A DNA stretch of 63,869 nucleotides, filler included, from Neolecta irregularis DAH-3 (taxonomy: Eukaryota): the NCBI GenBank assembly GCA_001929475.1. It is 8 parts of 8 records of this genome, joined end to end, with 100 filler letters (N's around TTAATTAATTAA, not from the genome) between each part and the next. Parts side by side here need not be neighbours in the genome. Positions count along the whole stretch, not along the records: positions 39,959 to 50,702 come from LXFE01000316.1; 7 more parts are not named here. One strand, 5' to 3'. Of this stretch, positions 12,090-55,614 are shown piece after piece. Position 1 is the stretch's first letter, and every line of letters starts with the position of its first letter. The translations under genes and the position numbers were made by a program. The notes below the pieces were generated by a model. That model did not search any database. It worked only from the letters and a program-made list of their open reading frames with translations, and was not told the DNA's origin.

Positions 12090-13394
12090 CGAAGCACTGA
12101 CGAAGCTGGATTTGGCAGTCTGCTGGTTTGCTCTTTGTCTGTGGTTGGATAATGCCGCATTTTTTGTTCTGCTCGTTGCAAGCTTGCACACAAGCAGTAT
12201 ACTACAAAGTCAGCCAAAGCAACAACTATCAACATACAAGGCTGGAGAACTGATTCTTGACGGAATCAACTGAAAAGGTCTTTCCATCAGCCGTGGCCGT
12301 GACTTGGGGAAGATCGCCTCCCTTGTTTCCAAACTTCGACCCGCATATTTTGCTAAATGATCAGTCGCGCTGCTCATTACTGTTCATACGGTGCTCCAAT
12401 AGGATTTACAGGAGTAGAATGGGGTGGCGAAACAGGAACTCCAGGAGTAGGATGGGGCGGCAGAACAGGAACTACCGGGGCGCCAGGGGTTGCTAGCCCA
12501 GTGACATTGAGCCACTTACAGTCATCAACAGAACCGCGCTGAGCTATTGGTAAAACAAGAGCCTGATGAGACTCCGAAGCCGCTATGGTACAAAATCGAT
12601 AAGTTCCTGCAGGAAGCCCACCAGCAACAAGGATAGACGTTTCCCCATTCTTGTCAGCTGCATTATTCGAGCCTTTGAAGAACGCAAAATTGCGCATATC
12701 GGGACTGGAAAGTCAACTAGCCATCTTTGAACGACATACAAAATACCCTCCTCTATTTCTTGGCCTACCAGATGGAAATGACCATTAGGGTTAAGAGTAA
12801 TTGGATCAACCACTTGTGGCTTGGAATAGTATTCAGTCTGTGTATTCGAAAAAAAACCAGTGTTGAGATGAACACACTTTACCACAACGTTGAACTCCGT
12901 CTTTTCTGAGATCACCTGGTTGTTTCTAGGCGAGAGAATTAAACAAGAGGGCTGGTGGTCAGAGGCCGGCCTAGGAAGCCGATTACCATATGATCGATAT
13001 CAGGAATCATTCCCATGACTACGGTGTTACACGAGCCTGTTTTAATTTGGTGTCCATTCGTAAGAGTTTGACCGTTGCAAATACTAGACGAATCGACTGG
13101 ATCTGAAGGGACTAGTTTTGAAGGTCCAGGTAAAGGTTTGGGGGCATCACTAGGTTTTGGAGGCTCAGGAATCCCCTTGACAAGATTGACAGGATCCGTA
13201 GGACTGGGTGGACTGGAAGTCGCTGTGCCCTTGTCTTTGCAATCCCGAACCTTTTTACTTGACGGGATGGGATTGGCGGCACGTTTTTCCAGAGCAAGTT
13301 GCCGCTTCATCTGGAGCGAGACGCTCGGCAGGTATGTTGAAGTGGATGAAAATACCATCAAGGCGAGAAAGACAAATACGGACTGGGGAAGCAT
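12064..13394 (-). CDS. Secreted Pro-rich/Cys-containing protein of a conserved fungal family of unknown function, 5 exons
   Basis: Signal peptide MLPQSVFVFLALMVFSS, KR sites, Pro-rich linker, conserved-looking core TNGHQIKTGSCN..MGMIP, GLPAGTYRFCTI...HQ....PIAQRGSVDDC. Two further introns extend it into a Cys-rich tail (TACVQACNEQNKKC...CQIQLRQC) ending at 12064. Confidence 0.8.
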
Positions 13395-30896: not shown

Positions 30897-31010
30897 CAAT
30901 GTTGCGGATGGGCCAAGACCGGCCCATGCAGTGTTAGCAATGGGCCATGGACTTAAACCAGTCCATTAAAACCCCATGGGCTGCGAAAAAGCCCGACCCA
31001 TTAGGGTTAG
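30897..31010. mobile_element. Possible hAT-like terminal fragment ending in TTAGGGTTAG
   Basis: CAATGTTGCG / CAGTGTT starts and short palindromic ATGGGCC / GGCCCAT / CCCATGGG motifs. Confidence 0.35.
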
Positions 31011-39958: not shown

Positions 39959-40021
39959 GAAGTACGTTTACTTAGGCTAGTTATATCACTTGGTCTTATC
40001 GTACTTCTAAGCGCATAGCTT
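39959..40021 (+). mobile_element. Pogo-like transposon relic (near-identical to 63291-63353)
   Basis: GAAGTACG..TACTT.GGCTAGTTATA.CACTTGGTCTTATCGTACTTCTAAGCGCATAGCTT shared between the two sites. Confidence 0.75.
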
Positions 40022-40494
40022 ACACTTCGCATAGCCTTTCCTTTTTTACCTACAGCGTGTACTGGATGAAAGTATATTGGGATTCTGCGATTATTTAGGC
40101 CTCTTTCTTTCAATAAGAACAATAATTAATCAATCGAATCAATTCGAGAACCAACACGGTCGCAATCATTTGAACCCATTCATTACTAACAAAGCCCTAT
40201 AACTTTATCCTCCTCTTTCAACAACCGTTACACTCACTTCACATCCATCATCCTCCCTGGCTTCTGATCCTTGGGACGGATTCTGCGCTACACACTGCAC
40301 TGAGTTTTACCGTGTTTCACGCTTCTAAAGTTGATGAGAATGAGCCTCACTTTGTATACATTAATTATTCCTTGTTCAATTAATTAATAAGGACATTGTC
40401 CGCGAAAGCTCGCCTCAGAAAAAGGTAGTTATATACAAGAATATACAACCCGATTCATACAACCCGATTCATTCCCAGGACAAGAGAAGGAGAT

Positions 40495-42836
40495 TTACAT
40501 TCCGATATGAGAGCCTTTACCTCCTGCATTATGCAGATCGCTCATGGAAATCTTGATTTTCCTGCCAGTCATGAATCCATCAGACCCGGTAACGTTCATG
40601 AATACCTCGACGATCCATTCGTACCATACTTTACGTCCGTCTGTTTCTCGCCAAAACATAACCTGTATGTCGCAATTTTGCGGGACATAGATCGGTGTCT
40701 GCCGTTTAGAAATTCACGAGAGAGGAGTTGGGAATACCTTTAAAGGGAAGAAAATTGGAAACCACGAGATCATATCTTTGTTTTTCTTGTCGATTGAGTT
40801 TGGGCGGATACTCAATTCGATATCACCGTATAAAACAGCCTCAAAATATCCGGCTATTCCATGTACAACACCAGCGTCTCCAACATGAAAGGAAGCCTTT
40901 CCGGACCGCCGATTATGTACATTATCTTTTAGATTTTCCGGAACAATGGATAAATTTGGGTGTTGAAATTCCCATATTTGTGCAGTTTCATTTGACAATG
41001 AGTCAAAGGCAGTCAACAGGACGACATAGGGTGTATCGTAAGGTGATGGAGCAGTATATTTAGATATATTGGCGTAGAGCTTTGGTGTCATTATCGGTGT
41101 AATATGAGCGGTATAGGAAGCCGGTATCGAGATGCCTCGGTCAGCTGAAGGTCAGCCAAACAGTAAAAGCCTTTTGTACGATTAAGCACCCGCTGTGCCC
41201 CGTCGATACATTCTGGGCTCAATTCATTATCACCGAAACTTCCGAGCAGTTCGCTAATTAGTATATCGACGAGTATAGGAGGATCCCAGGATCTAATATC
41301 ACTCCGAACTAGCTGTACGCGTTCTCCCCATTCTTCAGCCTTTCGACGTTGCAACCTTGGGTTAGAAATACTTCAAAAAAGAAAGACGATATACGTGACA
41401 AATGCGTTGGGATTTTTCTCGATAGCAAACAATTCGATGGTTCTTCCTAACTCTCTGGCAGCTCGGAGAGTGCAAGTTACCAGTGGACCTCTTCCTGCGC
41501 CGACTACAGCAACAATCCTGAATCATCAGCGGGTCACAAAAACAATAATACACTAGACCATTCTTTGGTCTTGCTGAAAGAGCTTTATGAATGGCTTTTT
41601 CGTAAAGGCTGTATTTCACAGGGTCTTTCTCAAACACCTCATAAGTCATGCTTTCAAGGTTATCCATCAACGGCTGACAGTTCAGCAGAACAGAAGATGG
41701 GATAAATCTACCTGTAAGGGCGTTTGAAGAAAGTCCTGGTAGCCGGCAGTGAATCTTTCAGTAGCGGTTGATGGGGGGATTGAGCGGTGAAGATAGCGTA
41801 TATATTGAAGATAGCTTAGCTTTCCTCCATTTCGCTCAAGCGTGTCCGTGTCTTGAAGTATGACAAAGGGGTTCAGCTAACGATCAATAGTGCCAAACGC
41901 GGGGATATATACAGCCATAAATCTTGTGATCATCAATTGATGCGTTTTCGAGAGAACAGGAAAACCCTTTGCGTTGGATAAGAATGTGTTCGAAGAGATG
42001 ACGAGAGCTTTTATAGGCTCTGTAAACCACCTGTTCAAAACCACCGGATTGACAGGTAAACGAGGCGGGATTTGAAGAGCTCATATCAAAACCACCCGTG
42101 CAGGAATAAATACCTACTGAAAGTCGAGGATGGTAATCGCAGACAGATCGTATCGTGTTCCAAACTTCCCAGAGGCTCAAAGGGTCACTTTGGATGGTTT
42201 TCTCAAGAGTGGGAGAGGACTGAAAGTCTTCTTCGGAGATCGGCAGGTGTACGCTAACCTACGATGTCAAACCTTGTTTCTCAACGGGAAACAAAACCTG
42301 GGCATGGGTAGAGCAGCCTAGAGCGGATTTCAATGCCTGTGCATACTGGACGATGCGATGCCTCCGTTTTGGAGCGGGAAGGATAATGTGTGGGATGCCG
42401 CAGTAAGAAGCATATTCGATTTCGCGATGTAGAATCTTGGGTGTAAACAATTGCCCGAGGACTAGCAAGAGATACTTCCTTGGAGATGGATGCGGCGAGG
42501 TCATCCTTGGAATCGGGTTCGATCCACGCGCTGGTAAAAACATGGATGTGAGCAAGGGGGTCTATACAAATCAGCTGCCGCAAACCGCGTAGCAGCACCG
42601 AGAGTAGTGATATTTACATCTGAGTCGAGCAATTGAGTAGCCGACGCCTGCGGTAAGCGCGAAATTGCCGAAGCAGAGATCTGCTGCTGGATGCGTTCGC
42701 GCAAACGGGGCTTGCTGAGTGGTAAAACTACAAAATCATAGCCGTCGGTGACGCTCTGGGCGAGCAAATTCTCGATATTCGTTTGGTCCTGCTGCGATCC
42801 CAGATAGCCAATACGCGCAGGCGGCCGGTCTGCCAT
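40495..42836 (-). CDS. PRMT5: Protein arginine N-methyltransferase 5 (Skb1/Hsl7), 10 exons
   Basis: [78 protein letters not shown]. Confidence 0.96.
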
Positions 42837-42952
42837 GGCGGCGAGGTTTGCGATCCGAGGCGATACAGCGGGCCGGGCCGGACCGGACCAGAAGGGGCCT
42901 CCCGGGTAGCTCCGCGTCCGGGAAGTACCGAGCTTCTATATGCATTGCGGTG

Positions 42953-42958
42953 TATAAA
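42953..42958 (+). promoter_or_regulatory. TATA box of a putative + strand transcript divergent from PRMT5
   Basis: TATAAA at 42953, about 190 nt upstream of the candidate template. Confidence 0.5.
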
Positions 42959-42979
42959 GGGTGCCTGTCCCGCCCCAAT

Positions 42980-44340
42980 CATGCCAACCATCTGCTTCCT
43001 CCACCTCTGCTCCTCCCCCAATGCCTGTCTCCCTCTCCAATGGTTTCTCGACCTGCCCCCACCGAAGCAAAGCCCGGCCTTTCTGGCCTATAGGCATAAA
43101 GAATGCGTCTGTGGTCATTTGCACGGGGTCCGCAGGCCGGAACTTAACCCTAAGTTTACAGTCGGTGAGCAGTGTTCTCTCGTTGCTTTGGGTCTGTTGT
43201 TTTGCGTCTCTTGCAGAGACACCATCTCTTGTTTGTTCAACGGACCTGGCGCTTGTCTGCTTCACACACGAACGGATTGTCTGCTGTCTCTGCCGTTTCT
43301 GGATTCTGTCTCCCCAAGTCGTTGGTCATCGCCGGCACGGACCTCGTTTTGACATAGACGTTGTTCCAGCGGTCCATTCTAGACTCACACACGCTCGGAA
43401 TCCAGAAATCGTCTAGACATGTAGTCTTCGTTACATTTGCTCGCCAAACTGTCCCTGATTGGGCTTTGCAAGCTTTAAGCAATTGCCATCTCGATAGAAC
43501 ACTGCGCGTTTGCAATACAACATCACCGACAGGCCCAACCCCGAACCTTCTTCGGGGAGGCCGTTTATTGTCCACAAGGCGGTTTTCGTGTTTCACGTTT
43601 GTCTGCCCAGGCTCGGATGCCTGACAAACAAAGGAAACATGAGGGACATGCAATACACACGAAGCGGCGATATGATGATATGTTGAGATGCTATGAACCA
43701 GAGATTTGTGAGGAGGAATTGCGAGTAGAAAGAAGCTTGGGACTCTTCTCTGAAGATGTCAAAGTTACATACTTGTCCATGAATCTTTTTCTCGACTAGT
43801 TCCAAAGATCTGCGTTTATCTTTTGGTTTAAAGCATCAGGGATGCTTTCATTGTGAAGAGCTGAATCGGGATGTCCTGATCTGGGGCATCCCGTTTTCCT
43901 CCCCAGATATGTCTCTTGTTCCAGTGCAAATGCTTACTTTTATCTATGAGCAGGGTACGACGGGTGAAAGGAGTGCAAGTAGAATTAATATCTTTCCAAT
44001 AGATAGATAGAATGAAATTAGATCATGCGCCAGGCACTTGCACATTCAGATCAATTCTCACAGCGGCTAAACTTACACCAAGTGTTTCTTATAACTCCTC
44101 TTTATCTGAACTGGGGTCAATCCAGGGTATACGCGTCTTTGGGACGGGCGTCGGTGTTCTTGCCGGTTTCCACTGTCCACGCACTCTCTTGAGCGGGTCG
44201 GGCTCTGTCTTGACGCTTTGCTCTGAAGAATCTGACGCGGAATTAAAGCGGACTGATGCTGTTTAGAGTCAACGGACGATTCCATCTAGTGCAAATACCT
44301 TTCTTTTCCGCCATTGTAAATAAAAACTAATATTTGCTGA
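42980..44340 (+). ncRNA. Candidate telomerase RNA gene (ends approximate)
   Basis: Template TAACCCTAA (43145-43153); boundary stem CCGGCCT/AGGCCGG (43074-43080/43134-43140); many GU-containing hairpins; candidate pseudoknot at 43931-44023; P6.1-like GGGTCGGGCTCTGTC at 44195-44209; no credible protein-coding frame. Confidence 0.68.
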
Positions 44341-45644
44341 GGTCTGTGTGACAATGAAGAAGTAATGGCAGCGAGGCTGTGGAAACAGTAGTACAGAGAA
44401 CAGGAAAACAAAGCGTTCGGACGAGACTTGTCGAGTTTCAGACTGCCTGGGTATTTAGAAGGATACGGAGAGCGACATGATTGGCAATGAACTGAGAGCT
44501 GGAGCAGGATCAAGAAGGGGCGTCGAGGAGGGGCCGCCAGCTTTATATTGGCATCAAGTCTGAGCTGTTCTCGAACCTTTCTTTGTGCGGAAGAGCTAAC
44601 TCGAAAGGGTCAAGTGCTTCGTACACCGAGAATTTATCAACGTGTCATCCAGGGGCATCATGCTTTGACAAACGGCAAGCTTGACCACATGCAGGTAAAC
44701 AACCTCAGCACGGATTCCGAGGCAGGGCAAGGATTGAGGACTTGGGGATTCTGATAACCAAACCTCATGTGTTTGAAGACTTGTCCGAACCATGGCAAAC
44801 AATCATGCTTTGAATTAGCCAGAATTTATCAGCCAGGCCCATTAACTCGCTGTTTTGTTGTTCCATTGGTCCCAGTCCGAGGGCCGGTCCCCTTTATAGT
44901 AGTCTGGTGACAATATAGGATTAATATGATTGGCAGAACTGTCCTCATGACGATTTCTAATTTTCCCATTAAGACTCCTGCATATCGGTGTTCCAGACGG
45001 CCTTTGGTCCTTGACAACTACATCGATCGCAAAGATACAACTATGATCGCCTAAAGCAAAGATTCAATCTCCATTTTCCACTTGTCCGAGAAAACGCCGG
45101 TATAATAGTGCTCGCCTCATTTACCGCTCTTTCATCGTTACGATCTTGCATGGCAAGAACACTCGCCGTGCAATTTTAATCTTCAATCAGTAGGATTAAC
45201 AGGTGTATAAAGAAGGACAAGTCCATGAAGAGGCCGATCACAAATCCCCAGCGGACAGCAGCGATTTCAGACTGTCCTATTTCCCAAAACTCGGATAGGA
45301 CTAAGTAAGGTCCTTCCTATCCACTGCAGAGTCAGTCGAGGACCTTAGCACGAACTAAAGCCTGCAACGAATTTCATTCAGATGGAATGAACTCCACAGT
45401 CCGAATAACACATAATGGACAATATGTCCGGTTTACTCCCCTACAAGAATCCTGTGCCCGGCGTCCAAATCAGGGAATCAGTTGCCAATTGCCATTGCCA
45501 CAAAAACATTTCAAAATTCATTGTATTCTACTTTAAAGTCACTGATAAAGTATTTGTAATTTCATAAATGGGATGGATAAGAAATATCGAGGTATCTATA
45601 CTGTACAAATCCTTTCTATTTTAAAAAATATTATCTAGCTAATT

Positions 45645-48188
<2,544 letters not shown>

Positions 48189-48450
48189 AATTTATCCCTA
48201 TGAAAAGGGTGGATGTTGATTGTGGTATGGTCACGTGAAACCAGACGAACAAGTGCGCGAATCAAGAAAGGTGAAATCCCAAAAACTTACAACAGAAAGA
48301 GAAAAGACTGGAGTATTGAAGAAATAATGAGGAGTAATATATTAATTGTCCTATGAATAGGATTATTGTAAGTATGCTATGCAGACTCACAACTTTCAAG
48401 ACGATCGGTATACTGTGTCACGTGACCCACCAGAACTTAGAGCAAATGGC

Positions 48451-48592
48451 AATCAATTCACAGCCATACAACCAACCAACAGATTCCAACAAAAGAAGTA
48501 TCCTCAGGATCAGAATTTAAAGGCGAAACTAATGGCTTACCAGAAACCTCGATTTAAGAATGTCAAAAGGGGACCTTTGAGTAAGCAGCTCA
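48451..48592 (+). repeat. Diverged dispersed repeat, copy B (homologous to ~22089-22230)
   Basis: Same colinear matches as copy A. Confidence 0.75.
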
Positions 48593-48727
48593 CAAACGTG
48601 CGATATCGATATCTCATCCTAGAAAATCACTTAATTACTAGCGCAATCCAATTATTATCAGTATAGAAAAACTTTTACATAAGCAGCTGCATCTGACCTT
48701 TGCTTGACTTTGAATCAAGAATCACTT

Positions 48728-50002
48728 TCAGTTGGTGATAATATCAATTAGACCCGATTTGAGTGCACCACTGGCCTTGTTGCTGAAGTTCTCTTGGAAT
48801 GAAGCAATAGATTTTTGAGTCCTTCCATATACGTTAGAGAGCACTGCTGTTACAAGATCGCGATAAATTATTATTTCCTCGTCCGACGGGCCCTTATCCG
48901 GTTGGTTAAAACCAGGTGGAAAGAGCGCCTTTGCCACAGTGATCAATACAGTTCCTGCCATAGATTGCTCGTCATTGTTGGTGTCAATGATACGGATTTC
49001 TTCAGGAGAAGTAATAGTATTATAATTCCAATCAATACGAGCCATTGCGTCTTGAAAATGTTTCAAAGCGAGTTTCTCGTGGTGCGGGTTGATTTGAGAT
49101 GTGGCTGCTACTATCAAAATTCTTTTGAAAGAACCACCATATCTGGAATCAACGTACTGTACTATCTCGTAATGATCAGGGCCGAATGAAACGATAAGCA
49201 GGTACAATCCATCACCTCGAATGAAAAGTATCTTGCTGGTTGGATCGTAAAGAGTGGTAATATCTGCACGAGCATTCCTGCCGAATACCTCTAGAAAAGT
49301 TAATACAATTGTATCAACCCCTTCTGAAAAAGTTTTTGAATTGCTCGAACGCTGTGCCCATGATTTTACAATGTCCATAAGCTTATCGTACAAAATATGG
49401 TGAGGTTTGGAAGCTGGTTCCCGAGAAAGCCATTCCTCAAAATTTACCATAACTGCTGGCTTGTCATGTATAGCAGTTTTGCAGACCCCTAGAATATCTC
49501 GATTTAACTTCAAATTAGAATCAGGAGATGATATCAAATATTTGGCTAAAATCCCACTAGCCCATTGTTCTACGGGCGTTTTATTGCTGTAAGAAAACCT
49601 TGCAATAACGTCTCGAACTAGTTCTGGTCCAGATATCCCAGATAGCCTTGTTATCAGAATTCTAGCATTACTTGGAAATACATACTCATATACTGCCAAG
49701 ACTTTATTAAGGGGCCAACTAGAAGGTAGGATCGATTTTGCCCCGTATGCGGGAGAGAGTAAACATAGTTTTTGTTTAGACATGGCAAATGAATGGCAAA
49801 AGTATGGCACCAACCGGCATTCTCGTGCGCATGCTTCTATTGCTTGGTCCTCATCCTTAATCAGCAAGACCAAGATTTTTCCTCTCGGCACAGAGCCGTC
49901 GTTATTGGTGTGAAACCCAGTAAATTTCTGTGTGAAATACTCGAGATCTGATGCCACACAAAGAGTACAAAGGGCGATCAAACATAGGAGCTTTGGAAAC
50001 AT
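48728..50002 (-). CDS. Secreted protein (424 aa): PAN/apple module plus a C-terminal domain resembling a degenerate Ulp1/CE-clan protease
   Basis: Signal peptide MFPKLLCLIALCTLCVA; CARECRLVPYFCHSF...CLL; C-terminal LYLLIVSF...IVQYVDS...SMAGTVLITVAKAL...EEIIIYRDLV; upstream TATATAAG on the minus strand; intronless. Confidence 0.75.
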   Translation of the reverse strand: MFPKLLCLIALCTLCVASDLEYFTQKFTGFHTNNDGSVPRGKILVLLIKDEDQAIEACARECRLVPYFCHSFAMSKQKLCLLSPAYGAKSILPSSWPLNKVLAVYEYVFPSNARILITRLSGISGPELVRDVIARFSYSNKTPVEQWASGILAKYLISSPDSNLKLNRDILGVCKTAIHDKPAVMVNFEEWLSREPASKPHHILYDKLMDIVKSWAQRSSNSKTFSEGVDTIVLTFLEVFGRNARADITTLYDPTSKILFIRGDGLYLLIVSFGPDHYEIVQYVDSRYGGSFKRILIVAATSQINPHHEKLALKHFQDAMARIDWNYNTITSPEEIRIIDTNNDEQSMAGTVLITVAKALFPPGFNQPDKGPSDEEIIIYRDLVTAVLSNVYGRTQKSIASFQENFSNKASGALKSGLIDIITN

Positions 50003-50308
50003 CTTTTTGGATAAGTCGAAACTAGGGTGACCCAGGTGACCATGGTGGGGCTTATATAGGGAATGTCTCCTCTACTTCCGCTTTCGTCCTTTTTTCTGCT
50101 TTTTTCATTTCTTTTTTTCGTCAAGTTATTTGCACATTAGCTCACATGATTACAGGAATCTGACTGGGGGGCTGCCTCGCGACTGCAAATTTCGGTTTCT
50201 CTTACTTTCTTGTCTTAACTTCTCAAACATTTTGCCCCCTGCGCCCATTAGCGATTCTTGCGGTTTGCTTCGATTCAGTTTCATCCTCTCTCCGTTTCTA
50301 TTTGTACA

Positions 50309-50458
50309 TACAGTCAACCTTGGCTATTGGGACCCTCCGTATAAAGAACCCAACTGTCTGCCAAAACTGATTTTAATGCGGTATTTTGCTATTATATACA
50401 ACGAATCCTCCTACTGAACACGCTGTCAAGTCACTTCGTTATGCCCGGTTCGACTATA
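50309..50458. mobile_element. Pogo/Tigger-like MITE relic
   Basis: TA|CAGTCAACC...GGTTCGACTA|TA imperfect TIRs. The left end aligns with the reverse complement of 63730-63771. Confidence 0.6.
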
Positions 50459-50802
50459 TTCCACTTTCAACATCATCCTGACGTTATACAACTTGCCTTG
50501 TATGTAAATGTGCTTGCCGTTCACCCGCGAACAAACCCTGGGTTAGTTTCTTTTGTACAGTTCGACACCCCCCTAAACGCAACACCTCGCCAAAAAGAAA
50601 CGTAAATTTCCAAACCAAAATTTCTCCCACACCACCTATTAAAAATGGAAACCAATGAGCAGATGGTACAATTAGATATCACAGATTTAGAAAATAGAAG
50701 ATNNNNNNNNNNNNNNNNNNNNNNNNNNNNNNNNNNNNNNNNNNNNTTAATTAATTAANNNNNNNNNNNNNNNNNNNNNNNNNNNNNNNNNNNNNNNNNN
50801 NN

Positions 50803-53252: not shown

Positions 53253-55614
53253 ATGTGCCCGCTGCTTCTCTCAGAGTGGCGCGTTTCTTTGCCGCTGCAC
53301 GGGCACGAATTCTTTTTTGCAGACGATGCGCTGATCGGCCCGCTGCTGATTGCACTCCCACTCGACAATTCGCGTTCTGCCGCTGTCTTTGCTCTCTGCG
53401 GCTCCCTATCCATCCCAAACCTCTCCCTTTCTCCAAATGGCCCCTTCTTTCCCGCTGCCCAACATCTCCCTCCATCGCTCTTCGAAAATCTCCATATCCG
53501 CGCTCTCGCAGTGGCAATGCTCCGCTATTTTGCTCAGATCCCGGACAATGTCCGCCGCAAAGCCCGCATCTTTCACGAACCAAATTCCACCGATCAGCTC
53601 CAGATAAGCGCCCGCGGCGGCGCTTTCGACGAAATGCACGCTGCAGACATTGCCCAGCGCTGCGTTCCCGCAAGAGCATCGCTCCTCCAGTCGCAGATAA
53701 ACAAGATCCTCGAACAGCGATTCACAAAGGACCTCATTATAGATCTCGTCCTCCCAGACACGGACACAACCAATCCATGCCCCTCAACCGACTCCTTTCT
53801 CTCAATATTCACAGATCCGGACGACCTCACAACAACCCACGATCCGTGCGTAAGAGACTCCATTTTGTCACCCCACCTGCCCCAATCTGGCTCCCTCCAG
53901 CTTGATTCCCATGTCACAGAACGACGCGTCCGCTTTTTTCATGAACTAGTGTCAACAGAAGAGCGATATGTGGATCGCCTTTCCCATCTGATCAGAGATT
54001 ATGTCGTTCCACTCCGACGATTAGGCACACCCTCATCATCCTACGACCTCAAGGCCCTCTTTCCAGCAGTTCTAGACCAGATATCTCAAGCAAACTCGGC
54101 ATTTTACAACGAAATAAAAGACGTCGACAACGAACTGCAATTAGCTACTCTGTGCTCCAAACACGTTCGCCTCCTTTTATATTTTAGTCACGTCATTTAA
54201 TCTCCTAGTTTGGTTTGTTTGCCCCGCTCTACTCTAAATTCCTCGAAGCAAGCTTGGACTTTGAAATCCATCTCGAGAATCTGCTGCGGCAAACTCGATG
54301 CAAAGAATACGCAAATGTCCTTGTCAACGTTGTCAAAATTAATCTTTTTAGGCGCAAAAGTACAAAGGACGACACCATGTCGGACTCAAGGAGTTGCTGA
54401 TGGAACCAATGCAACGAATGCCTCGGTATTCCATGTTACTCTCAAGTATTTTCCCTGGAACCTATCACTTCTTACCTTATACATCCTCGCATTGACCCCT
54501 GACTCGACTACTCTACATAAAACCCTAACCGAGACTATCAATATTGCTAAAAGAATCTCTACAATGGAACGAAAAGACGCGGAGAAAGTATCCTCTACAT
54601 TCTTTGCTTTAAAAAATAAAATCGCCGGCTTCCCTGATTCCATGATCTCTGCAAATCGCAGACTAGTCAATGCCGTCAACGCTCAATGCCTTCTCAGCCC
54701 AGATTTTTTACGAGCAGAATCCCTTCCAGTCACTCTTGTAATTTTCACCGACTGTATCGCGATTCTCCAGCGCGTAGGAGAAACTGTCTCTGGAGCAGCT
54801 GAAATCTTGCAATGTCGATTCCTGCTCAAGCCACAGGGCAGCAGGAAAACAGAAAAGTCAAACAATCTAGCCACAAGCACCTCCAACAAAAAAGACTTGA
54901 TATTTCGCGGGTGGATCAAATGGGAACAGGCATATTTTGAATATGGCCACCAGCAAGATTCTCTATGGATCAGACTATCCTCCGAAGTCGTCAACTCGGT
55001 CGTCGACCACGATAATCGATGGACCCGCAAACCCGAACGCAAATTCATCATATCCGGAGAAACTAATATTGACGTAGAAGGTTTCATGCAAGCCATCACA
55101 TCCGCAAAACTTCAATGCAAAACAGGAAAAGCTGAAACACTGACCTTGAACAACCATTCGCTCTCGGCGAAATTCGCAGTATATAGAGGAACAGAACAGT
55201 ATAAATCCGAAGATGTTAAAGTAAGACAATCCTGTAGTTGAGGAGCTCTGACGACTAGTCTGATATAGCTATTATCTGCGAATCGAGCAGCGATTTCCAT
55301 ATCTCCTTNNNNNNNNNNAGCTCTGACGACTAGTCTGATATAGCTATTATCTGCGAATCGAGCAGCGATTTCCATATCTCCTTGAAATTCCTGCAGGCAG
55401 TAAAGGTGGGAATCACCCTGAAATTTTTAGATAATGAGCACTACAAGTAAATACCCTCAACATCAATTAACCTAACCTAAAAAAGTCTATCTGTCCAAAG
55501 TGCCACTGACGGCGTTGCAGACGCCTCAATCGACCAAATACCTCTTTCCAATCTCCGCAAAGCGATCCTAGAACAAGGTAAAAATTAATCTCCAATCTCT
55601 AGTATTAAAAATCC
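53253..55614 (+). CDS. Bud3/Gef2-like RhoGEF (DH-PH), 3' end truncated by the gap
   Basis: Bud3-type N-terminus (LSLSPNGPFFPAAQHLP, FDEMHAADIAQR); DH motifs ELVSTEERYVDRL and GLKELLMEPMQRMPRYS; PH-like LVIFTDCIAIL. Confidence 0.82.

Follow-up and report, generated by a model that had tools for sequence, protein, structure and literature searches.

Our results indicate that the + strand at about 42990-44560, between the genes PRMT5 and PRP43, may encode the telomerase RNA of Neolecta irregularis, a candidate known from sequence alone to which we give an even chance. All positions refer to the window, i.e., the whole stretch of 63,869 nucleotides that was analysed, which is a string of separate contigs; the real neighbourhood of the locus is 39959-50702 only. 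The order of promoter, boundary helix, template, pseudoknot-like pairing and junction on one strand (Table 1) is the order expected of a fungal telomerase RNA, and the distance from template to junction is about 1 kb, as such an RNA should show. The presence of the motifs, their order, their strand and the missing coding signal are direct observations. That the locus is transcribed, where its RNA begins and ends, which helices form and what the candidate does are all predictions from the DNA. Taken singly, the clues are near chance, with p values of 0.02-0.10 for the structural features, and the structure arguments were all made after seeing the sequence. At present the locus amounts to a candidate, exactly located and open to testing, and not to a discovery.

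Table 1. Sequence and structure elements of the candidate telomerase RNA locus (window coordinates; z, fold score against shuffled sequence; MFE, minimum free energy).
Element	Position	Strand	Description	Basis
TATAAA	42953..42958	+	Putative promoter element of the + transcript	Sequence; promoter function presumed
CU-rich 5' arm	43004..43037	+	Predicted terminal helix with 44494-44533, five segments of 4-5 bp	MFE of 42990-44556
Candidate template boundary hairpin	43074..43140	+	7-bp closing helix CCGGCCU/AGGCCGG	Watson-Crick pairing; fold z -1.0
Local hairpin	43140..43157	+	GAACUUA/UAAGUUU, burying both template ends, ACCC in loop	-4.2 kcal/mol
TAACCCTAA	43145..43153	+	Candidate 9-nt template, 1.5 repeats of CCCTAA	Sequence match
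Pseudoknot-like element	43931..44012	+		Hairpin plus loop-to-downstream pairing
Hairpin of this element	43931-43952	+	UGCUUA/UGAGCA; loop CUUUUAUCUA can pair with UAGAUAGAA at 44004-44012	
Candidate three-way junction	44133..44216	+	P5 = GCGUC/GACGC	Constrained fold
Alternative canonical P6.1-type hairpin	44134..44146	+	CGUC-UUUGG-GACG, 4 Watson-Crick pairs, 5-nt NUNGN loop	Descriptor scan
P6	44142-44178	+	Two segments of 6 bp	Constrained fold
P6.1-like hairpin	44191-44205	+	GAGC/GCUC, 7-nt loop GGGUCGG	Constrained fold
GUCGGGCUCUG	44197-44207	+	P6.1-like stretch	Match to human motif
GA-rich 3' arm	44494..44533	+	Partner of 43004-43037	MFE fold
Possible 3' end processing cassette	44536..44607	+	Putative 3' role	Hairpin plus intron-like element
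Small hairpin	44536-44552	+	U-rich loop CUUUAUA	MFE fold
Intron-like element	44558-44607	+	50 nt: GUCUGA 44558-44563, GCUAAC 44595-44600, first AG 44606-44607	Motif reading

The interval between PRMT5 and PRP43

The start codon of PRMT5/skb1 was placed at 42836 on the - strand by alignment of the annotated protein (P0121), and the gap between this gene and PRP43 (42837-45644, 2.8 kb) is gene-free. The GC content is 0.49-0.65 across 42700-43700 and 0.525 at the junction, and the mean of the window is 0.43. The TATAAA reported in the initial annotation was found at 42953, and 117 nt separate it from the start codon of PRMT5/skb1. Transcription by RNA polymerase II might begin 30-50 nt past this element and yield an RNA of about 1.55 kb, back-to-back with PRMT5/skb1.

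It had been claimed that the interval carries no credible protein gene, which agrees with our results showing a flat period-3 signal, no Pfam match, and ORFs outside the protein collection. Sixteen ATG ORFs of at least 40 aa were listed in the interval, the longest being 131 aa. None of the seven ORFs sought in the protein collection was present, and this collection does include the annotated proteins of the contig; a Pfam search of two ORFs gave no match. Over 42650-45457 the period-3 signal was at most 1.7 and mostly below 1.5, compared with mostly 1.3-6.3 in PRP43. The introns of the two neighbouring genes are just 35-55 nt long with weak signals and degenerate 5' sites (n = 7), so genes may escape ORF scans here. 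However, given the coding results, it is highly improbable that an unannotated protein-coding gene, cut up by such very short introns, occupies the interval.

Candidate template and boundary helix

The candidate template TAACCCTAA was located at 43145-43153, where the initial annotation had placed it, and the template of the N. crassa telomerase RNA is 9 nt long according to the available portion of its description (PMC3592445). The helix proposed upstream was also recovered, with CCGGCCT at 43074-43080 pairing with AGGCCGG at 43134-43140 and ending 4 nt before TAACCCTAA. A helix is therefore present where fungal telomerase RNAs have their boundary helix, just 5' of the candidate template, although 10.1% of 3812 random positions have a helix of at least 7 bp so placed (p = 0.10); an equally good helix occurs at one of six control telomere-like loci. 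TERT would copy UAACCCUAA (43145-43153) into TTAGGG repeats, and the 7-bp helix ending at 43140 would keep it from copying past the template's 5' edge. The earlier caveat that AACTTA/TAAGTT could fold over the template agrees with the folding prediction, which leaves five of its nine bases with P(unpaired) of just 0.09-0.20. Telomere repeats were sought at the ends of the eight contigs of the window, and none were found.

TAACCCTAA matches the window seven times compared with 0.39 expected, so it is not specific to the 43145 locus. These telomere-like 9-mers lie at seven loci in 63 kb, 43145 being one of them, and the hexamer count is as expected; because they are frequent, the prior for any single one being a template is low, and the "template" at 43145 could be a promoter box. 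Under this explanation, it would be a Myb-type TTAGGG-binding site in the divergent PRMT5 promoter, or an interstitial repeat, and the rest would be spacer DNA or a long non-coding transcript of another kind, with resemblances due to chance. Fission yeast has TTAGGG-binding promoter factors. The box lies within a 7-bp inverted repeat, a form common among DNA-binding sites, at a distance of 309 nt from the start codon of PRMT5, and two of the telomere-like loci are about 20-75 nt upstream of an ORF-opening ATG. In addition, single structural features with p values of 0.02-0.10, structure equal to background, and the empty Rfam searches favor a box of this kind. However, it leaves unexplained a 2.8-kb gene-free interval with GC content at or above the coding level, and the telomere-like boxes other than 43145 are not within extended palindromes. 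Of the seven loci, 43145 alone is followed on its own strand by a P6.1-like match. It is also less likely that the box, the helix, the P6.1-like motif, a canonical P6.1 hairpin and the end pairing occur together on one strand in the right order than that any one of them does. We consider the promoter box or interstitial repeat possible but somewhat doubtful.

Pseudoknot-like element and candidate junction

Downstream of the candidate telomerase RNA template, TGCTTA/TGAGCA was found at 43931-43952 with a loop complementary to 44004-44012, as the initial annotation described. The loop-to-downstream pairing comprises 9 bp with a duplex energy of -8.7 kcal/mol, a value reached in 2.0% of 2921 random 150-nt segments. 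Runs of four or more A residues were absent between template and junction, so no U-A.U triple helix can be made out, and the purine strand alternates; likewise, no run of A-U pairs fit for base triples is present in the pseudoknot-like element.

GGGTCGGGCTCTGTC was confirmed at 44195-44209, inside GCGTC/GACGC (44133-44216). The P5/P6/P6.1 junction fold has an energy of -25.6 kcal/mol compared with -31.7 kcal/mol for the MFE structure, i.e., within 6 kcal/mol, and a z of -0.98. The P6.1-like 11-mer lies 1.05 kb downstream of the template on the same strand. The chance of this is about 0.02 in 2.5 kb on one strand, a value derived from an expectation of 0.95 matches per 128 kb; with at most one mismatch, two matches were found in the window compared with 0.95 expected. 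The 'UC' that extends the human P6.1 motif beyond GGGCUCUG follows the motif as quoted in the initial annotation. Compared with the human GUUGGGCUCU, 9 of 10 bases are identical, and the mismatch falls on the U that is invariant in the available text of the source (PMC2965242).

The P6.1 consensus, in the accessible part of its description, is a stem of 4 bp carrying a loop of 4-5 nt (NUNGN) (PMC3592445). The drawn P6.1 departs from the family form: its loop is 7 nt long, or else its stem is 3 bp and C replaces the invariant U. A stem of 3 bp had been noted before as a caveat, and the register of the human motif does give three pairs, one of them G.U. The hairpin at 44134-44146 does fit the P6.1 definition, yet it is incompatible with the P5 and P6 strands as drawn; it stands without P5/P6 context, 50 nt from the P6.1-like 11-mer. 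Hairpins of this canonical P6.1 type are to be expected by chance, and the descriptor matched seven of them in the 2.5 kb of 43154-45640, this one included. The junction at about 44133-44216 may bear a TERT-binding P6.1-type hairpin, formed by either the GAGC/GCUC stem or CGUC-UUUGG-GACG.

Proposed RNA ends and 3' processing

The 5' and 3' ends of the RNA might form a helix, with 43004-37 joined to 44494-533. This terminal pairing ranks first among 2137 + strand windows of the contig, at -39.4 kcal/mol compared with a mean of -15.0 (sd 6.5), and other contigs of the window offer stronger partners for 43004-43037, down to -51.7. A core-closing pair of TGCCTG (43022) and CAGGCA (44031) had been suggested earlier. 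Both motifs are present, but the MFE structure joins 43024-27 to 44505-08 instead, and the pair was given no weight.

The intron-like element, which comes directly after the terminal pairing, has a perfect branch site in GCUAAC at 44595-44600, and its 50 nt are close to the length of the local introns (35-55 nt). A first splicing step at 44558-44607 might make the 3' end near 44550, in the manner of fission yeast. Motifs as short as those of this intron-like element are common. A motif search for a canonical Sm site (AU4-6G) and for AUAAGU found neither, and the Aspergillus-type signals CRCGDCGCG and CGGC3-5U7-12 were both absent from the locus. The initial annotation presumed a Pezizomycotina-type organism, which proved wrong, as the DNA is that of Neolecta irregularis, a member of the Taphrinomycotina. 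Thus, AUAAGU-type 3' end signals need not apply.

Local hairpins and folding stability

The hairpins reported at 43539-57, 43585-643, 43830-48 and 43867-93 are real, with z values of -2.5 to -4.5 on the + strand. The accompanying claim that G-U pairs favor the + orientation held for one of the four (43867-93, -20.5 on + vs. -14.7 on -), but for the remaining three the - strand folds just as well or slightly better. The description of the hairpins as dense was not upheld. In a scan of 70-nt windows, counting those with z of at most -2.5, 42990-44560 had a mean z of -0.16 and 3% of 75 windows in this class, compared with 3.2% of 3124 across the whole stretch. The boundary hairpin, the pseudoknot region and the junction had fold z values of -1.0 to +0.5 against shuffled sequence, with no extra stability. 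The folding stability of the locus is no better than that of shuffled sequence or the window background.

The strong local hairpins at 43530-43900 might also belong to a different non-coding RNA, such as a box C/D snoRNA at about 43658-43821 or a snoRNA host transcript. A weak Rfam match to Afu_198, a C/D snoRNA of A. fumigatus, covers 43658-43821 (+ strand; 25.2 bits, E = 0.057) and includes AUGAUGA at 43672. However, 25.2 bits is far under the gathering score of 40 and the whole-window search had no match, the D-box position aligns to GAUCUG and not to CUGA, and there is no terminal stem around AUGAUGA and the CUGA at 43751. Afu_198 was rejected because of its score, the unmatched D box and the absent terminal stem, and another non-coding RNA is an improbable explanation of the locus.

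Comparison with known telomerase RNAs

In the portions available of their description, the telomerase RNAs of N. crassa and 72 other Pezizomycotina (Qi et al., 2013; PMC3592445) have features predicted for the Neolecta candidate as well, i.e., a 9-nt TTAGGG template with a helix just 5' of it, the order from template to pseudoknot region to P5/P6/P6.1 junction, and a length of 1.5-2.4 kb without an ORF. In contrast to them, the candidate has no demonstrable sequence or Rfam match and no AUAAGU 5' splice site. Its drawn P6.1 loop is 7 nt compared with their 5 nt (NUNGN), and Neolecta belongs to another subphylum.

The known telomerase RNAs of the Taphrinomycotina, the subphylum of Neolecta, are those of the fission yeasts (Schizosaccharomyces TER1) and of Saitoella complicata, according to the excerpts at hand (PMC3592445; PMC4299874). 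The same excerpts describe a junction of vertebrate type, its P6.1 having 4 bp and a loop of 4-5 nt, which the putative Neolecta junction may share. For S. complicata, covariance models were the search method (PMC3592445). In these RNAs the first splicing step makes the 3' end, with an intron just past the mature end, and the motifs suggest a similar arrangement in Neolecta. The 5' splice sites of S. cryophilus and S. octosporus are GUCAGU, with C at +3, and resemble the GUCUGA of Neolecta. However, the fission yeasts have degenerate templates and telomere repeats, whereas the Neolecta box is of the perfect TTAGGG type, and the AU4-6G Sm site is missing in Neolecta. These likenesses were drawn from the published descriptions (PMC3592445; PMC4299874).

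As far as the available text of the report extends, the Aspergillus and Penicillium RNAs are intergenic and have CCCUAA in the template, a yeast-type boundary helix a few nt from the template and a compact CR4/5-like junction, and the Neolecta candidate would be similar in these respects (Kuprys et al., 2013; PMC3603654). Their genes lie between Zpr1 and the gene for a TATA-box-interacting protein, whereas that of Neolecta would lie between PRMT5 and PRP43. The promoter motif CRCGDCGCG, the Sm-like CGGC3-5U7-12 and AUAAGU, which that text gives for them, do not occur at the Neolecta locus (PMC3603654).

For human P6.1, the accessible passages (Kim et al., 2010, PMC2965242; AAGAGTTGGGCTCTG in PMC10035886) allow a match of the Neolecta GUCGGGCUCUG to GUUGGGCUCUG at 10 of 11 positions, and the P5-P6-P6.1 arrangement of human CR4/5 can be drawn at the Neolecta locus. 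U307 of human P6.1 is described there as 100% conserved and required for activity (PMC2965242). By contrast, the sole mismatch of Neolecta falls on U307, and its stem has three pairs, one of them G.U. The Neolecta P6-P6.1 linker is 12 nt, and there is no H/ACA domain, none being expected in fungi.

Possible significance

The candidate might represent the first telomerase RNA of the Neolectomycetes and be a hybrid, although we consider this unlikely. In such an RNA, a perfect template of the vertebrate type and a junction resembling CR4/5 would be combined with a deviant P6.1 (C for the essential loop U, or a 7-nt loop). A small hairpin would sequester its template until opened by TERT, and its 3' cut would be spliceosomal, at GUCUGA (C at +3), in the manner of some fission yeasts. 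Sm proteins are methylated by PRMT5, and the helicase PRP43 releases stalled spliceosomes. If the hybrid exists, the placement of its gene between PRMT5 and PRP43 would hint at co-regulation of the telomerase RNA with its own maturation factors.

To our knowledge, filamentous growth with fruiting bodies occurs within the Taphrinomycotina in Neolecta alone. If its telomerase RNA were confirmed, there would be a further deep branch point from which to trace three changes: how ascomycetes kept or altered the vertebrate-like core (template, pseudoknot, CR4/5), the origin of spliceosomal 3' end cleavage, and the timing of fission yeast telomere degeneracy.

Database searches and related loci

Rfam release 15, with such fungal telomerase RNA models as it contains, gave no match at the gathering level for the whole window. 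No telomerase family was obtained for 42700-45700 at E <= 10, and 44100-44260 had no match at E <= 10. No published Neolecta telomerase RNA was found in the literature, work on Neolecta telomeres was absent among the matches listed, and a search for GGGCUCUGUC gave only unrelated papers.

Scanning metagenome contigs with the C-terminal exon of PRP43 gave 20 loci with best-segment identities of 51-68%, and one fragment of 79 residues reached 78% identity to the query. TAACCCTAA was present at two of the 20 loci and GGGCTCTGTC at one, and none had both. At one locus (L002) the box is in the same relative position, with an ORF of 617 aa next to PRP43 and no PRMT5. This locus, the one that was read, is not syntenic. 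By eye, its 617-aa ORF is Gly-rich and looks like a DEAD-box helicase.

Coding potential and gene neighbourhood

The putative telomerase RNA gene (+ strand, ~42990-44560) lies between PRMT5/skb1 and prp43, and whether this interval encodes a telomerase RNA is, in our assessment, almost evenly balanced. By rough reckoning, any single telomere-like locus in this DNA has a prior chance of about 1 in 1600 of being the telomerase RNA, assuming 7 such loci in every 63 kb of a ~14.5-Mb genome, which we take to be the size in Neolecta irregularis. The odds are raised by the long non-coding setting, the boundary helix, two P6.1-like features, and the pseudoknot-like and end-to-end pairings; they are lowered because the template is buried, the triple helix is missing, and Rfam is silent. 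If real, the candidate would be a telomerase RNA from a class without a described one, and not a new kind of system.

Eight separate contigs make up the window, with seven linkers between them. The contigs are unrelated, and any gene neighbourhood across the linkers is artificial. The candidate's own contig spans 39959-50702 (10,744 bp). Its PRMT5 exon (40714-41091) matches, with 100% identity, Protein arginine N-methyltransferase skb1 of Neolecta irregularis DAH-3, and the helicase gene on the other side is prp43 of the same strain (90% match, computed over the raw ORF with introns still included; next best 67%). The initial annotation assumed a Pezizomycotina host; the DNA instead comes from Neolecta irregularis, a filamentous member of the Taphrinomycotina. 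A gene on the + strand of the interval would have a head-to-head arrangement with PRMT5 and a convergent one with prp43.

Positions of linkers, flanking codons, candidate elements and interstitial repeats in the window
Feature	Position	Strand	Content
Linkers	21984, 33591, 39859, 50703, 55615, 59616, 62181		44 N, TTAATTAATTAA, 44 N
PRMT5 annotated start codon	42836	-	
prp43 stop codon	near 45645	-	
Boundary helix	43074-43080/43134-43140	+	
Template box	43145-43153	+	telomere-like 9-mer
Pseudoknot-like element	43931-44012	+	
Drawn junction	44133-44216	+	P5/P6/P6.1
Interstitial telomere-like repeats	16897-16915, 22246-22266, 22971-22983, 12785-12793, 31001-31010, 54521-54530		CCCTAA/TTAGGG, 1.5-3 units

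All of the motifs claimed by the initial annotation were recovered at their coordinates, and its view that the interval contains no protein gene was borne out by ORF, protein, Pfam and period-3 checks. The longest ATG ORF has 131 aa; none of 7 interval ORFs had a match in a protein collection that does contain this contig's annotated proteins, and neither of 2 matched Pfam. The period-3 signal was ≤1.7, mostly <1.5, over 42650-45457, compared with up to 6.3 in prp43. In GC content the interval equals or exceeds coding sequence, with 0.49-0.65 over 42700-43700 and 0.525 over 44100-44299; the window as a whole averages 0.43. We regard a missed protein gene as highly improbable.

In prp43 and PRMT5/skb1, introns measure only 35-55 nt (n=7; window 45648-47786 and 42259-42585, - strand) and have degenerate 5' splice sites (GUAUGA, GUACUC, GUAUUC, GUGCGU, GUUUGC, GUAUCU and GUUUUG), as judged from two protein alignments reaching 489/660 and 196/650 residues. 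In addition, near-identical direct duplications (99% and 100%) on either side of 10-N gaps, at 13391-13623 and 55244-55383, look like assembly gap artefacts.

Candidate template box and boundary helix

The window contains TAACCCTAA 7 times versus 0.39 expected, and telomere-like loci in all registers number 7 per 63 kb, two of them being runs of 2.5-3 repeats. The telomere-like box is thus a common element in this DNA, and the template box alone says little. Telomere-like 9-mers are enriched ~18-fold in the window, while the hexamer frequency matches expectation. A factor that binds TTAGGG may recognise the interstitial repeats. That the candidate box is a promoter box or a chance resemblance is a possible explanation, though a somewhat doubtful one. 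A 7-bp inverted repeat, GAACTTA / TAAGTTT (43140-43157), encloses the candidate box and sets it apart from the other boxes in the window; such a repeat may form a hairpin in RNA or serve as a palindromic site in DNA. The earlier caveat of a fold over the template holds, with 5/9 template bases predicted to be paired in a hairpin of -4.2 kcal/mol that arises from this inverted repeat. At least two of the interstitial repeats lie ~20-75 nt upstream of an ORF-opening ATG.

A perfect helix of at least 7 bp ending 0-8 nt upstream was found at 10.1% of 3812 random positions, and a boundary-type helix (8 bp) at 1 of 6 control telomere-like loci. Fold z-scores were -1.0 for the boundary hairpin, -0.98 for the junction and +0.5 for the pseudoknot region. 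A 70-nt scan of 42990-44560 gave a mean z of -0.16, with strongly stable windows as frequent as across the whole window; folding stability gives the candidate no support. The four hairpins proposed for 43530-43900 are indeed stable, but on both strands, and the + strand is clearly favoured only at 43867-93. The pseudoknot-like duplex (-8.7 kcal/mol) was equalled by 2.0% of 2921 random segments, having been chosen after inspection of several hairpins. There is no A run of 4 or more between template and junction, so that no triple helix of the kind usual in telomerase pseudoknots is evident.

Candidate P6.1 and three-way junction

GUCGGGCUCU agrees with the human P6.1 string GUUGGGCUCU, as quoted in PMC2965242, at 9/10 bases. 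With at most one mismatch, such 10-mers occur 6 times in the window versus 2.95 expected, and 11-mers ending in G, the human form of which is quoted in PMC10035886, occur 2 times versus 0.95 expected; the chance of such an 11-mer in 2.5 kb of one strand is ~0.02. P6.1 of fungi and vertebrates is described as a 4-bp stem with a 5-nt NUNGN loop, the loop having 4-5 nt in S. pombe and S. complicata, and an invariant A separates it from P6 (PMC3592445; PMC4993307). U307 and G309 of human telomerase RNA are reported as invariant and required for activity (PMC2965242). The P6.1 hairpin of the initial annotation departs from the published definition in either register: the sequence-match register has a 3-pair stem with one G.U and a C in place of the invariant U, and the best-paired register (GAGC/GCUC) has a 7-nt loop. 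A junction can be drawn with this hairpin, a 5-bp P5 and a two-part P6 of 6 + 6 bp, at -25.6 versus -31.7 kcal/mol for the free fold, and its P6-P6.1 linker is 12 nt.

Downstream of the template, a descriptor scan returned 7 hairpins of P6.1 type. Among them, CGUC-UUUGG-GACG (44134-44146) has four Watson-Crick pairs and a loop that departs from the human loop only where the latter is not conserved. Because this hairpin shares bases with the 5' strands of P5 and P6 as drawn, only one of the two models can hold; no P5/P6 could be built around it.

Known RNA families and putative RNA ends

Rfam gave no gathering-level match, and at E ≤ 10 only a weak sub-threshold snoRNA match; we consider another non-coding RNA an unlikely occupant of the interval. 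Aspergillus-type promoter, Sm-like and AUAAGU motifs were absent from the locus, and these signals are described as clade-specific (PMC3603654). The literature searched yielded no description of a Neolecta telomerase RNA or telomere. The sub-threshold match, to the A. fumigatus C/D snoRNA Afu_198 (43658-43821, +; 25.2 bits, E = 0.057), has an AUGAUGA box but lacks both a terminal stem and a D box that fits the model.

When 42990-44556 is folded freely, the predicted partner of the CU-rich 5' end (43004-37) is a GA-rich tract (44494-533), which ranks best among 2137 + strand windows on the contig (z ~ -3.7); GA-rich tracts on other contigs are predicted to pair more strongly with 43004-37. Directly 3' of this pairing are a small hairpin, the loop of which is rich in U, and then a 50-nt intron-like element with GUCUGA, a perfect GCUAAC branch site and AG. 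GUCUGA would fit 3' end formation by splicing-type cleavage, but motifs of such length are common. Together, the end features suggest an RNA of ~1.55 kb, which would place the template around nt 155 and the junction at about nt 1150-1230, comparable to nt 1029-1090 given for the junction of S. pombe TER1 (PMC3592445). The ~1 kb from the proposed 3' end to the prp43 stop codon (44600-45640) is without an ORF, and its GC content drops from 0.49 to 0.29 toward prp43; this stretch may represent a second exon that carries a poly(A) site, the 3' UTR of prp43, or spacer.
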